DNA from: an uncultured Bacilli bacterium
GTDB lineage: Bacteria > Bacillota_I > Bacilli_A > RF39 > UBA660
Direction: 5' to 3'
NCBI GenBank assembly: GCA_934090595.1
Contig: CAKOJO010000001.1
Span: 1 to 55,665, forward strand
Length of the DNA: 55,665 bases
Below, one piece after another: positions 25,442-29,533 of the stretch. Below the pieces are notes generated by a model, which did not search any database, was not told where the DNA came from, and was given only the letters and a program-made list of their open reading frames with translations. Position 1 is the stretch's first letter, and every line of letters starts with the position of its first letter. The position numbers were made by a program, and so were the translations under genes.

Positions 25442-25470
25442 TTGCAATATTTTTAAAAATATATTATCAT
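25442..25470 (+). promoter_or_regulatory. Sigma-A-like promoter for the TasA-like genes
   Basis: TTGCAA, a 17-nt spacer, then TATCAT. AAGGAGG RBS at 25481. Confidence 0.4.
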
Positions 25471-25496
25471 GGTTATAGTAAAGGAGGTTAAACATA

Positions 25497-26081
25497 ATGG
25501 AAGATAATGGTTCTAAGAAAATTTTGTTGACTGTTTTAGGAGTTGCAATTTTAGTTGTTGCTGTTGTTGGTATTTCGTTTGCATTGTTTACTTCAAATGA
25601 TAACGTAACTGGCGAAAATACTATTAAATCTGGAACAGTTACTATGAGTTTCTCAGAAAAAACAAATGGTATTACGTTATCTAATGCTTTACCAATGAGT
25701 GAAGCTGATGCATTACAACAATTAACTAAGGACGGAGATTATTTCGACTTTGATGTTGTTACTAAAACTTCTAAAGCGGGAACAGTTATTCCTTATAAAG
25801 TTTCTGTTGCAAAAATTAGTGGTGATTTAACAGATGATCAAATAGCAATTAATCTTCAAAAATTAGGAACAGATGGCAAGTATACTTCAATAGTATCTGG
25901 TAAAAAAATCAGTGAAATGGCAAATGGTGTAATTGTTGATGCTACTGATAATGCTGGTACTGCTGCTGGTAAGACAGATTCTTATAGATTAAGAATTTGG
26001 ATTGCTGGTGATCAAGATGCTTCTACTATTGCTTCTGACTCTAAATATTCTTTAAGAGTTAATGTAAATGGTGGAGTTTAA
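25497..26081 (+). CDS. TasA/camelysin-like secreted protein with SipW-cognate-type signal peptide (paralog 1)
   Basis: The N-terminal region VVGISFALFTSNDNVTGENTIKSGTVTMSFSE...ITLSNALP parallels the TasA region GGGTWAAFNDIKSKDATFASGTLDLSAKE...VNLSNLKP. Strong RBS. 194 aa. Confidence 0.65.
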   Translation: MEDNGSKKILLTVLGVAILVVAVVGISFALFTSNDNVTGENTIKSGTVTMSFSEKTNGITLSNALPMSEADALQQLTKDGDYFDFDVVTKTSKAGTVIPYKVSVAKISGDLTDDQIAINLQKLGTDGKYTSIVSGKKISEMANGVIVDATDNAGTAAGKTDSYRLRIWIAGDQDASTIASDSKYSLRVNVNGGV

Positions 26082-26106
26082 AATTTTATGAAAGGAGTTT
26101 AATATA

Positions 26107-26877
26107 ATGGAAAACAATAAAACTATGATTTTATCAATTCTAGGTGTACTAGTTTTGGTTATTGCTGTTGTTGGTGTGTCATTCGCTATGTATAGTTTTT
26201 CTGCTCAAGGTACTAAAGAAAATGTAATCACAACAGGTTCTGTTTCTTTATCAATTGATAAGAAAGGGCAATCTTTATTTACAGTTGAAAATACATATGG
26301 TGTTAGCGATGAAACTGGTCTAGCAGGTGGTGAAGGTGTTGGTACAGGTAATTTTACTTTAACAGCTAATTTATCTGGTACAATGAACATTCACTATGAA
26401 GTTGGATTTGTTGATTTGACTGAAGGTAATACTAATTTAACAGATAGTATGATTATGGTTGCTATTAAAGATAATAATGATAATTATTATACTAGTACTG
26501 GTACAACTAAAACTGCTACTGCTGTTACTTTAAATAGTTTTGCTAATAATAAAGGATTTGCTACTGATGATACAGGAATGACTGGTATTACTGCTGATAC
26601 TTATTTATTGAATAATTATGTATTTGATAAGGGTGTTATTACAACATCTGGTAATCAAAAGACATATACTATTAATGCATGGATTAGTGATAAATATGTA
26701 TTAAAAGGTGGAGAAGAAGGAACAGCTAATACAACTTCTGGATCTTGTTCAGTTGCTGGTAATGATACAGAAGCTGCTTGTAAATCTGCAAATGGTGTTT
26801 GGACCAATACACAAACTAAAGAAACTACTGAAGAAACATTCAGTTTTAAAGTTAAAGTTGCAGCTGCTCAATTCTAG
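26107..26877 (+). CDS. TasA/camelysin-like secreted protein (paralog 2), Thr/Gly/Asn-rich with one Cys pair
   Basis: Signal-anchor VVGVSFAMYSFSAQGTKENVITTGSVSLS matches paralog 1. It shares a late motif (YTINAWISDKY versus YRLRIWIAGD). The C-terminal insert contains SCSVAGNDTEAAC. Confidence 0.6.
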   Translation: MENNKTMILSILGVLVLVIAVVGVSFAMYSFSAQGTKENVITTGSVSLSIDKKGQSLFTVENTYGVSDETGLAGGEGVGTGNFTLTANLSGTMNIHYEVGFVDLTEGNTNLTDSMIMVAIKDNNDNYYTSTGTTKTATAVTLNSFANNKGFATDDTGMTGITADTYLLNNYVFDKGVITTSGNQKTYTINAWISDKYVLKGGEEGTANTTSGSCSVAGNDTEAACKSANGVWTNTQTKETTEETFSFKVKVAAAQF

Positions 26878-26888
26878 TATGATGAAAT

Positions 26889-26999: not shown

Positions 27000-27692
27000 A
27001 TGAAGGATGATAATGAAAAGTATTTTGATGTTTCCTCAGATAAAGAATTGGTTAAGGTTGCTGATAAGGTAGCTTTTGAAATTTTGCATCCTGAAAATAA
27101 AAGTGAAAATGGTCGTTTTATATTCTTATTACTATTGCTTATTGTACTTTTAACTTTATTTGTGTCATTTATATGTTTTTCTGTGGCTGATCATTTTAGT
27201 TCGGTTAAAAATAATACAATAACTACTGGTTCGGTTTTATTTTCTTTTTCTGATGACAGTAATTATATTAACATGGTAGACATGTATCCTGTTTCAGATG
27301 AGGTTGGAATGAAATTGAATGGTAAAAATGAAATGTATGAATTTAATGTTTCTGAAAAGTATTATGGTGATATTTCAAAAAAGAAAAATTCTGATTACTC
27401 TAGTTATGAAGTTTCGTTAGTATTGAATGATGAAAATACTATTTCACCTGAATATATCAAAATTTATTTAGTAAAAAATCAAAAAGATGTAAAAATTAAT
27501 GATAAAATTGTCAATAAAGTATCAGAACTTCCTAAGAGTAAAATACAAAATAATGGGTATACTTTAATTAGAAATGAAATTACTGATGATAATTTTGATA
27601 CTTATACTTTTAGAATGTGGTTGTCAACTGATTATTCTGTTGATAATGTTTCTAGAATATTTAAGTGCAAGATTGCTGTTAATAGTTATTAA
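27000..27692 (+). CDS. TasA-like paralog 3 with an N-terminal cytoplasmic extension of about 40 aa
   Basis: ORF 26961..27692; ATG at 27000. After the TM segment comes HFSSVKNNTITTGSVLFSFSDD, the same motif as paralogs 1 and 2, and a late motif YTFRMWLSTDY. Confidence 0.55.
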   Translation: MKDDNEKYFDVSSDKELVKVADKVAFEILHPENKSENGRFIFLLLLLIVLLTLFVSFICFSVADHFSSVKNNTITTGSVLFSFSDDSNYINMVDMYPVSDEVGMKLNGKNEMYEFNVSEKYYGDISKKKNSDYSSYEVSLVLNDENTISPEYIKIYLVKNQKDVKINDKIVNKVSELPKSKIQNNGYTLIRNEITDDNFDTYTFRMWLSTDYSVDNVSRIFKCKIAVNSY

Positions 27693-27700
27693 AGAAAGGG

Positions 27701-28378
27701 TTGGTAGTAGTGAAAAAAACTTTAAAATTGATTTCTAAAATTATTTCATCGACTTTATTTATTTTGCTTTTATGTGTAATGATATTTTTGCTTATTTATG
27801 TTGTTAGGGTAAAGGTTCTTGCTAATAATAATGATTTGGGTGAAGTAAAACTTAATTTTTATACAATACTTTCTCCAAGTATGTATCCGACAATAAAACC
27901 AGGAGATATTATTGTTACTTATAGGGAAGATGCTTATTATAAAGGAGATATTATTACTTTTGTTTCTACTTCGAATATTAGTAGTGGTAAAACTATTACT
28001 CATAGAATTTATTCTGAACCCATAGAAATGAATGGTAAAATGCAATATACTACTAAAGGTGATAATAATCCTACTCCAGATAGTTCTCCTGCTAGTGAGG
28101 ATAATGTTTTAGGTAAGGTTTTATTTAAGATACCAAAAGCTGGTTATATTCAACAATTTTTATTATCAAAAATTGGTTGGGTTTCTGTTATTCTTCTTCC
28201 TTGTATGGGAGTTGTTATTTATGATATTTTAAAAATATTTAAGATTGCTGGTAGCAAGACTAAATCTGTTGTTAAAAAGAATGCAAGGTCTGATGTTGCT
28301 AGAAAAGAGCTTATTAAGACTTTAAATGAAGATGAATACGAAAAAGATAATGATAAAAAGTTAAATAAGGAGGAATAA
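27701..28378 (+). CDS. sipW: SipW-type (ER/archaeal-type) signal peptidase I
   Basis: Catalytic Ser box ILSPSMYPTIKPGD, His box TITHRI, and TKGDNNPTPD. Second TM near the C-terminus plus a long Lys/Glu-rich tail. Start could be TTG 27701 or GTG 27710. Confidence 0.85.
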   Translation: MVVVKKTLKLISKIISSTLFILLLCVMIFLLIYVVRVKVLANNNDLGEVKLNFYTILSPSMYPTIKPGDIIVTYREDAYYKGDIITFVSTSNISSGKTITHRIYSEPIEMNGKMQYTTKGDNNPTPDSSPASEDNVLGKVLFKIPKAGYIQQFLLSKIGWVSVILLPCMGVVIYDILKIFKIAGSKTKSVVKKNARSDVARKELIKTLNEDEYEKDNDKKLNKEE

Positions 28379-28380
28379 TT

Positions 28381-29070
28381 ATGATTAAAGATTTTTTTAA
28401 ACTTTTTGGAAATATAGTTATGATGTTAGGAATTATAATGGCTTCATTTTTGTTGCTAATTAACCTTTATCATTATAGAGAAATTTCTCATATTTATAGT
28501 GTTGATACTAGTGAAAACATTTCTTATAAAAGTATCAGAGATAATATTAATAAATCAGAAAAATTGGTTTCTATTGATATATCTAATGTTGCTGCCAGTA
28601 AAACTGATTCTGCAAAGGCAATTCAAGGTACAATTAATAAATGTATAACATCTTTTAAGGATTCTGAATTATATAAAAATTCTGGAATGCATACTTTTAA
28701 ATATTATGATACTTACACAAATATGAATTATTTATATACTAAAATTAATGCTGAATGTAATAGTTTATTAAAGTATAGCATAAAGCCTTATATTGAATCT
28801 AATTCTAGTGTTAAATCTAGCTATAATAATATGATTAATAATTATGAAAAAATGTTTGATGTTGTTGCTAGTAATGCAAATTATATGGAAAAGAAGTCAT
28901 TAAATACTAATTCTTATTCATTTACTAGTGAAATGAATAGATTTTCAATTTTTGATGATTTGAGAAGTGATACTGAATTTACTTTGAGAAATTATGATAT
29001 AGTTTCTTCACTCATTTTAGACATATCGACTTGGTATCATGATACATTCGGAGGTGATTCTAATGAGTAA
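28381..29070 (+). CDS. Hypothetical membrane-anchored protein (229 aa) of the sipW locus
   Basis: Single N-terminal TM, then an Asn/Ser/Tyr-rich, probably helical ectodomain. The start lies 3 nt after the sipW stop. No family recognised. Confidence 0.5.
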   Translation: MIKDFFKLFGNIVMMLGIIMASFLLLINLYHYREISHIYSVDTSENISYKSIRDNINKSEKLVSIDISNVAASKTDSAKAIQGTINKCITSFKDSELYKNSGMHTFKYYDTYTNMNYLYTKINAECNSLLKYSIKPYIESNSSVKSSYNNMINNYEKMFDVVASNANYMEKKSLNTNSYSFTSEMNRFSIFDDLRSDTEFTLRNYDIVSSLILDISTWYHDTFGGDSNE

Positions 29071-29533
29071 CATACTTTCTAAAATGTTCTTTTATTTGAG
29101 ATATGTTTTGATTATTGGTGCATTTTTCTTAGTGTTTTGGGGACTTACTTTTACTTATCAACGTTTGGAAAAACCTATGTCTGAAGCAATTAATGTTTTA
29201 ATTCCTTTTGCTTTAGTGTTTCTTGTTTTTATTGTTAATTTGTTTATTGGTAAAAAGGAATGTAGTGAGAATTTATTGTTTAATTTTGGTACTTTCTTAA
29301 TATTATCAGTTACAATATTAATTGGATTAAGAGCAAAATTTGATACTAATATGTTAATATATTATAAGTATAACATATCATATAATTCGGCTTATTTAGC
29401 TGATAATCTTGCGATGATTGAATCAATGTTTTATGTTATTTTTGGTTCTAATATTTTACTTATTGTGAGTGCTTTACTTGATAAAAAAAAGGCTGATAAA
29501 AAGAAAAGTAGTGTTAGTAAGAATGCTGAATAA
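29063..29533 (+). CDS. Hypothetical polytopic membrane protein of the sipW locus
   Basis: ORF 29039..29533. ATG 29063 follows GGAGGTGA and overlaps the upstream stop (ATGAGTAA). About four TM segments and a Lys-rich tail. No family recognised. Confidence 0.5.
   Translation: MSNILSKMFFYLRYVLIIGAFFLVFWGLTFTYQRLEKPMSEAINVLIPFALVFLVFIVNLFIGKKECSENLLFNFGTFLILSVTILIGLRAKFDTNMLIYYKYNISYNSAYLADNLAMIESMFYVIFGSNILLIVSALLDKKKADKKKSSVSKNAE

Follow-up and report, generated by a model that had tools for sequence, protein, structure and literature searches.

What is built by six adjacent genes that set three paralogous proteins with signal-anchors beside a signal peptidase and two further membrane proteins? 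The genes lie on the plus strand between a yabE-like gene and ksgA, in a stretch of 55,665 nucleotides from an uncultured Bacilli bacterium (assembly GCA_934090595.1, contig CAKOJO010000001.1; this whole stretch is called the window below). By our reading of the open reading frames (ORFs) they are three subunit genes (A, B and C), a sipW-type signal peptidase gene, and genes E and F (Table 1). Among the protein scaffolds of Gram-positive biofilms, TasA-type fibres are understood best, and outside Bacillus it is unclear how such fibres are initiated, ordered and anchored. An earlier note on this DNA had proposed a SipW-dependent fibre, matrix or spore-appendage system here. Following up this proposal, we consider it probable that these genes specify a surface fibre or adhesin system of several subunits, which depends on SipW and belongs to the superfamily of TasA, BsaA and the archaeal bundling pili. 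The identity of the peptidase, the TasA-like fold and the co-occurrence of the genes sustain the proposal to this extent, whereas its link to spores found no specific support.

The three subunit proteins have in common a signal-anchor, the motif SF[AI]-x-[FY]...N.I.[TS]G[ST]V..S and a late Y..R.W[IL] strand, shared features from which three consecutive paralogs had first been proposed. BLASTP relates A to B at 2e-12 over the N-terminal 74 residues and A to C at 3e-8 over the full length. When a profile of 52 A-family proteins was aligned to the other two by hhalign, the match to B reached 99.1% (E 4.9e-19, 177 columns) and that to C 99.2% (E 1.4e-19, 180 columns). These alignments identify A, B and C as true full-length paralogs, far beyond chance. 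A is predicted to be cut by SipW at ISFA29|L30F, and its mature part of ~165 amino acids (aa) is, as had been remarked, much shorter than the 234 aa of mature Bacillus subtilis TasA. B has a predicted cleavage site at VSFA27|MY and an additional Thr/Gly-rich insertion ahead of the last strand, and B-type orthologs occupy the equivalent position within the window's subclade. Both proteins had been called Thr/Gly/Asn-rich; the combined fraction of Thr, Gly, Asn and Ser is 0.43 in B, which fits that description, and 0.35 in A, which is not especially rich.

Gene C most likely starts at ATG 27000, since a ribosome-binding site (GGTGGTGA) stands just 5' of this codon and an independent gene call gives the same length of 230 aa. 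With this start the cytoplasmic N-terminal extension of C comprises ~39 aa, in agreement with the ~40 aa estimated before. The paralog directly 5' of sipW has such an extended, charged N-terminus in every species. Within the extension (window 27000-27116), the window's subclade also keeps the motif (L/V)K(V/I)ADxVAxEIL, which reads VADKVAxEIL in the window's own C; n-regions of signal peptides are not usually conserved in this way, which suggests an interaction in the cytoplasm. The canonical cleavage site is altered in C to VSFI|CF, with Ile at -1, and an alternative site, FSVA|D, is present. The suggestion that C is an analogue of TapA is not supported at the level of family: C is a full-length paralog of A, no Pfam or NCBIfam match places it in a distinct beta-sandwich family of the TapA type, and possible cleavage at SVA|D makes an anchoring role uncertain. 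By analogy alone, C may have a TapA-like role.

The peptidase matches TIGR02228 (sigpep_I_arch) over residues 15-176 with 107.8 bits, well above the cutoff of 51.85, and scores 96.1 bits against the Bacillus SipW equivalog NF046067, for which the cutoff is 190. On these scores it is an enzyme of the SipW type and not an ortholog-level counterpart of Bacillus SipW. Its translation contains the motifs SPSMYPT, THRI and KGDNNPTPD, and we take the SxSM..P and HR motifs to supply the catalytic Ser and His, instead of a Ser-Lys dyad. Transmembrane segments are predicted at residues 19-37 and 155-173, and a charged tail of ~45 aa follows the second. The ER/archaeal-type, SipW-like peptidase with a charged tail that had been read from the sequence is thus what the family models and motifs indicate. 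An independent gene call places the start at GTG 27710, which would give a protein of 222 aa.

Whether the subunits resemble TasA was asked at the level of fold and at the level of the processing site. From the 52-sequence alignment, AlphaFold2 models A with a mean predicted local distance difference test (pLDDT) score of 77.9 and a core above 90; an all-beta sandwich spans residues 46-192, and residues 1-44 ahead of it are disordered. A Foldseek comparison of this model with the PDB, which had been put forward as a check for a TasA-like fold, returned the TasA fibre subunit (8aur_A) at the top and as the sole match at E<=1e-3 (E 2.5e-4, probability 1.00). The archaeal bundling pilus 7ueg appeared at rank 46 (E 0.016), and several donor-strand pilins stood further down; compared with viral structures, the model gave generic jelly-roll and tail-fibre matches, which were uninformative. 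For the processing site, the TasA query sequence was checked to be identical to 8aur and its precursor was then aligned with the A-family profile by hhalign (E 1.1e-4). The alignment places TWA|AF of TasA on ISFA|LF of A, and F29, F39 and G42 of TasA on F31, I43 and G46 of A, so that the parallel between A and the signal and mature N-terminus of TasA, previously drawn by eye, now extends to aligned cleavage sites. The donor strand with which TasA builds its fibre consists of residues 28-38 (PMC9674648), and an aromatic residue at P2' is reported (PMC10269814) as the reason why TasA requires SipW over an enzyme of the LepB type. The fold and the processing site together therefore support membership in the TasA superfamily, and the model supports a TasA-like character of A, B and C beyond the signal peptide.

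The subunit family lies outside every curated sequence model. NF046066 (BioflmMtrxTasA) matched 19 of the 52 members weakly, the best at E 0.0025 and none near equivalog level; TIGR04088, the model of the signal cognate to SipW, has a cutoff of 19 bits, of which A reaches 15.7, and matched four of the 52 at E<=0.1; and Peptidase_M73 (PF12389) matched none of them at E<=0.1, with no other convincing Pfam match. There is no Pfam model for the family, none of 341 close homologs of A carries a Pfam domain, and none of ten diverse members looked up in clusters was named. The family is nevertheless large: of the clusters formed at 50% identity, an index-free HMMER search with the A-family profile retrieved 5040 at E<=1e-3, and 2196 of these at E<=1e-10. 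This wider family retains the site [ST]-[FY]-A|A-[FYW] but varies in the hydrophobic core of the signal, and the retained pattern fits the T-W-A|A-F of TasA. In many members, of 300-1743 aa, residues 1-200 are the module and Big_2 or Listeria-Bacteroides repeat (Flg_new) domains come after it. In some genomes satellite copies of the subunit genes lie far from sipW; in one rabbit-gut metagenome-assembled genome (MAG) they are scattered over several contigs, and among them are forms with 492 and 602 aa. The long, repeat-bearing forms and the satellites therefore support a surface-exposed, adhesive role of the family. Examples of long members, of 490-1743 aa and from outside the window, are P0155, P0245, P0219, P0204, P0227, P0234, L047 67-1545 and L073 6568-8376, in which Big_2, Listeria-Bacteroides repeat or DUF6273 domains come after the module.

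Scanning one genome per species gave 79 related loci from uncultured gut Bacilli, 51 of which span the interval from tatD to ksgA. Both homolog searches selected on exact words or patterns within the hydrophobic segment of A. The gene order tatD-(yabE)-[2-7 paralogs]-sipW-[extra ORF]-E-F-ksgA-yabG was found in all 51 complete loci. A separate metagenome scan seeded with E agreed: among the matches listed, four of four, a small sample, carry the paralogs, sipW and F. The six genes thus co-occur well beyond this strain, as the earlier note had asked to be checked. The extra ORF between sipW and E, present in 47 of the 51 loci (for example L011 13583-14128), encodes a divergent paralog of ~180 aa (hhalign 95.8%, E 7e-9) that has neither the SFA|AF site nor the NTITTG motif. 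Judged by the gene order, this paralog has been lost in the window and in its nearest relatives (L002, L004, L007 and L043). Because it has no cleavage site, it is the best candidate for a membrane anchor, better than C.

Genes E and F match no Pfam or NCBIfam family, and are predicted to have one and four transmembrane segments, respectively. The gap between sipW and E is 2 nt, and E and F overlap; the overlap suggests translational coupling, in line with the two coupled membrane proteins of no recognisable family that had been described after sipW. E lies 3' of sipW and directly 5' of F in 50 of the 51 tatD-to-ksgA loci, in L070 being detected by tblastn only, and F lies 3' of E in all 51. 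The length of E is almost fixed, at 228-234 aa in 48 of 50 labelled loci even where identity to the window's E is 20-25%, and within the larger subclade E is 71-100% identical and more conserved than the subunits. Its AlphaFold2 model (pLDDT 82.3) shows a transmembrane helix and then a helical bundle with a small hairpin. Invariant in E are FLL.IN.YH, at the end of the transmembrane helix and the membrane boundary, and C88, C126 and W218; these last three residues are invariant across both E subclades at ~20% identity. The two Cys may form a disulfide in an extracytoplasmic helical bundle. An alignment of 67 F sequences shows conserved RLxK, P, N and R...D.NM, and F probably starts at Met9 (29063), which matches the starts of its homologs. 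As far as sequence can tell, E and F appear tied to the system only by the coupling to sipW and by their strict co-occurrence.

Signals for transcription were read from consensus and terminator scans. The hexamers of the candidate promoter P1, ahead of A, are kept in related loci L002-L007 while the flanking sequence has diverged, and yabE has a terminator hairpin of its own 5' of P1. After B, a hairpin terminator had been noted; it was one of two sites found in the terminator scan against 0.5 expected, has a folding free energy of -8.7 kcal/mol (z -2.0), and has counterparts of differing stem sequence at this position in L003, L007, L008 and L043. Scan, fold and conservation in relatives here agree. 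Near the candidate internal promoter P2, a TGTG(A/G)TAT block is kept 5' of the C-type gene in relatives. We infer from these signals two transcription units, the first with highly expressed subunits and the second with a minor subunit and the machinery. In one close relative (L005 2198-3583, minus strand) an insertion sequence (IS)-like transposase (HTH_29/HTH_28, weak rve_3) lies between the B-type and C-type genes and splits the subunits from the machinery.

In the fibre system that we propose, P1 would drive strong expression of A and B, with the terminator after B attenuating transcription, and a second unit, served by P2 and by read-through, would provide the minor subunit C, SipW, E and F. 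Sec would export the subunits with their signal-anchor, and SipW would cut them within the sequence G-[VI]-S-F-A | x-[FY]; an aromatic residue at P2' is what makes TasA a substrate of SipW and not of LepB. The freed residues 30-45 of A, continued by the conserved strand NTI.[TS]G.[VI].[ML]S, would then act as the donor strand. This strand would complete the beta-sandwich of the next subunit, with head-to-tail polymerisation as in TasA. C, and in most relatives the uncleavable paralog as well, would probably start or anchor the fibre at the membrane, and E and F would probably serve as a platform in the membrane on which the subunits are held, ordered or anchored.

Several results weigh against this reading. 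The A model compares with 8aur at a template modelling (TM) score of 0.39, normalised on the full length including the 44 disordered residues, and at 13% identity, which is modest; the hhalign match of A to TasA has a probability of 57%, and its 60 columns are mostly signal and N-terminus; and the curated cutoffs of TIGR04088, NF046066 and Peptidase_M73 are reached by no member. In the window's C, Ile occupies position -1 of the canonical site. The E model has no significant fold match in the PDB, its best matches being generic or designed helical bundles (best E 0.09), and E and F could have a separate function and merely be linked to the system. The promoter consensus scan found 37 sites against 43.9 expected from shuffles, and because of this lack of enrichment the two-unit layout stays at the level of inference. 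Finally, the host organisms are uncultured.

The strongest competing explanation, which we think unlikely but take seriously, is that A, B and C are non-polymerising surface proteins, either processed by SipW or left anchored in the membrane. In that case the ~170-aa module would be a stalk or attachment domain, SipW might be a general peptidase, and E and F would be unrelated envelope proteins. The small size of these genomes makes a single signal peptidase conceivable (one MAG chromosome has 1.5 Mb), and monomeric adhesins would also agree with the long members that join the module to Big_2 or Flg_new repeats, with the failure of all curated TasA models, and with a fold match to TasA that is moderate only. 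However, conservation within the A family is concentrated at residues 41-60 and in the C-terminal strands 161-170 and 183-192, with a variable middle, a profile that resembles polymerising subunits, in which the terminal strands are typically the most conserved. Residues 30-44 of A are unpaired in the AlphaFold2 model, just as the donor strand of BsaA is in monomer models (PMC11580942), and in the alignment the cleavage site of A falls exactly on the TasA site. The tandem arrays of two to seven paralogs, which include distinct minor types, also speak for subunits that assemble.

On the fibre reading a further step can be proposed, which we offer tentatively and regard as doubtful as a whole. 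E, F and the uncleaved paralogs might constitute an unrecognised membrane platform for the assembly and anchoring of donor-strand fibres, and the ~170-aa module might be a polymerisation handle for Big_2 or Listeria-Bacteroides passengers. This would be a sortase-independent form of display, fixed in the core genome of a gut lineage with reduced genomes.

Operons that join sipW to remote TasA homologs, often several of them, are already known, from B. subtilis and C. perfringens (PMC11580942). The tapA-sipW-tasA operon of B. subtilis (PDB 8aur; PMC9674648, PMC10151520) shares with our locus an archaeal/ER-type peptidase beside its substrates, a signal site of the form [ST]-aromatic-A | A/x-aromatic, and a beta-sandwich subunit with whose donor strand the N-terminal segment of A aligns. 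It has one TasA, whereas loci of the window's clade have three to eight paralogous subunits; and it has TapA, whereas the minor components here are paralogs of the subunits and no TapA homolog is found. The gene order also differs, with subunits first, sipW in mid-locus and the conserved E and F in addition.

A second known system is the C. perfringens locus sipW-bsaA-bsaB-bsaC (PMC7395162, PMC11580942), in which sipW likewise accompanies more than one remote TasA homolog in an operon. The BsaA/TasA family is described as widespread, often with several paralogs per operon (Kivimaki et al., PMC11580942). For BsaA, donor-strand exchange is predicted from a loop at the N-terminus which, like that of A, lacks order in the monomer model. 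It also has an N35-E56-K74 isopeptide triad. N41 and E54 are invariant in the 52-sequence alignment of the A family, which has no invariant or near-invariant Lys in the mature part, and with no conserved Lys an isopeptide lock like that of BsaA is not evident. The bsa locus further includes a von Willebrand A protein (BsaC) and a two-component regulator, neither of which is found here, and as the papers describe it the Clostridium operon lacks E and F.

The archaeal bundling pili AbpA/AbpB (PDB 7ueg; PMC9245690) are, like the subunits of our locus, small TasA-like jelly-roll proteins (~180 aa), which undergo donor-strand assembly after a cut by signal peptidase I, and their operon too holds several uncharacterised membrane proteins. 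Unlike our locus it has no dedicated peptidase, and its minor component AbpB resembles TapA instead of being a paralog of the subunit; the likeness between the two loci comes from the list of fold matches. Chaperone-usher and type V pili of Gram-negative bacteria offer a mechanistic analogy: their major and minor subunits are encoded in tandem with a terminator after the major gene or genes, as here, and they assemble by donor-strand exchange, as we suppose for this locus. Here there is no chaperone, usher or outer membrane, and the systems are not homologous.

Against this background, what is new is a large branch of the TasA superfamily that sequence models do not see, an array of differentiated subunit types that includes uncleavable ones, and a pair of conserved accessory membrane proteins together with a fixed core-genome position in an uncultured gut lineage with small genomes. 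Should the proposed mechanism be true, the locus would be a candidate for the main surface structure of organisms known only from metagenomes, and would offer major, minor and anchor paralogs as a natural set in which to study donor-strand assembly without a chaperone. It would also annotate hypothetical gut proteins in their thousands, large adhesin-like proteins among them.

The genomic setting bears on how the locus arose. The window is origin-proximal: dnaA, dnaN, recF, gyrB, gyrA, dnaX, recR, holB, ricT, pth, mfd and a spoVT-like gene are followed by metG-tatD-yabE, and 3' of the locus come ksgA-srtB-yabG-veg-spoVG, with yabG passing the TIGR02855 cutoff. This order bears out the yabE-ksgA backbone given in the earlier note, and the yabE-like gene is the kept upstream neighbour in most related loci. 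That note had also described the locus as inserted into this backbone and as replacing rnmV. The locus is found clade-wide and in synteny in genomes whose MetG identity to the window goes down to ~55-60%; it is ancestral to the whole clade, and "inserted" is therefore misleading. No step in guanine-plus-cytosine content was seen across the region, which, with the same position in all related genomes, rules out a recent insertion or mobile island. As for rnmV (RNase M5), none lies between yabE and ksgA in the window or in any related locus, and no match was found among the window ORFs searched against family libraries, which extend to ~33 kb.

The same neighbourhood invites the idea of a spore appendage or coat layer expressed in sporulation, which we regard as improbable. 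TasA itself was first named spore coat-associated protein N (the molecule name of PDB 5of1), and yabG, spoVG and the spoVT-like gene are nearby, yabG following every related locus; yet these neighbours simply form the ordinary Bacillota order dnaA ... metG-tatD-yabE-ksgA-yabG-veg-spoVG, and as this order is conserved near the origin, proximity to yabG carries no functional signal. The hexamers of P1, moreover, are sigma-A-like rather than of a sporulation-sigma type, although this is weak evidence, and the locus has no sporulation-specific feature. The nearness to spore-surface genes, at first taken as a clue, therefore loses its meaning.

The segment LGVAILVVAVVGxSFA was near-invariant in the first homolog set at ~40% overall identity, an effect largely of selection because the exact-word searches used that segment. 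That the subunits are archaeal-type IV-pilin-like, with the N-terminal hydrophobic helix kept as filament core, is hardly credible, and a retained helix of this kind was ruled out: in the index-free search G-[VI]-[ST]-[FY]-A|A-[FYW] is all that stays constant beside a freely varying hydrophobic core, no G/A stands at -1 ahead of the hydrophobic stretch, Pfam and NCBIfam scans reveal no gene for a prepilin peptidase, assembly ATPase or platform protein in the locus, the fold search gives TasA and not pilins, and the three-paralog profile finds in the PDB, at best, the archaeal type IV pilins 6nav and 8tib (E 0.18 and 1.1; hydrophobic segment and first strand, window 25497-25640), matches that are non-significant and probably compositional, striking as the local resemblance is.

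Table 1. Features of the locus and its flanking genes (positions in the window).
Feature	Position	Strand	Description and basis
yabE-like gene	24787..25380	+	upstream flank, encodes a membrane-anchored protein outside the system; between tatD and the locus; weak family matches only, one of them to the RlpA family
P1	25442..25470	+	candidate sigma-A-type promoter for A and B, TTGCAA-17-TATCAT; consensus scan
gene A	25497..26081	+	194 aa; TasA-like subunit, first and putative major
gene B	26107..26877	+	256-aa paralog
terminator	26889..26913	+	intrinsic terminator after B, hairpin (26889-26905) and T-run; terminator scan
P2	26952..26981	+	candidate internal promoter for C-sipW-E-F, TTAATA-18-TATAGT with upstream TG; consensus scan
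gene C	27000..27692	+	230-aa minor paralog
sipW-type gene	27701..28378	+	archaeal/ER-type signal peptidase I; TIGR02228 above cutoff
gene E	28381..29070	+	229 aa; single-pass membrane protein
gene F	29039/29063..29533	+	~156-164 aa; four-transmembrane membrane protein
ksgA/rsmA	29579..30409	+	downstream flank, outside the system; TIGR00755, 225 bits against a cutoff of 171

Two further genes of the neighbourhood deserve mention. Between ksgA, whose end it overlaps, and yabG lies a class B sortase gene (window 30384-31250), with a TIGR03064 score of 174 bits (cutoff 154). It is confined to the window's close relatives L002-L004, L007 and L082, and in more distant loci ksgA is followed directly by yabG. 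A link of this sortase to the system was rejected, as it accompanies ksgA in near relatives only and A, B and C have no sorting signal, neither an LPxTG/NPxTG-like motif nor a C-terminal hydrophobic tail. On the other side of the locus, just 5' of metG, the spoVT-like gene (window 21363-21893) encodes an AbrB-family regulator that is similar to SpoVT and scores 158 bits against an equivalog cutoff of 236.

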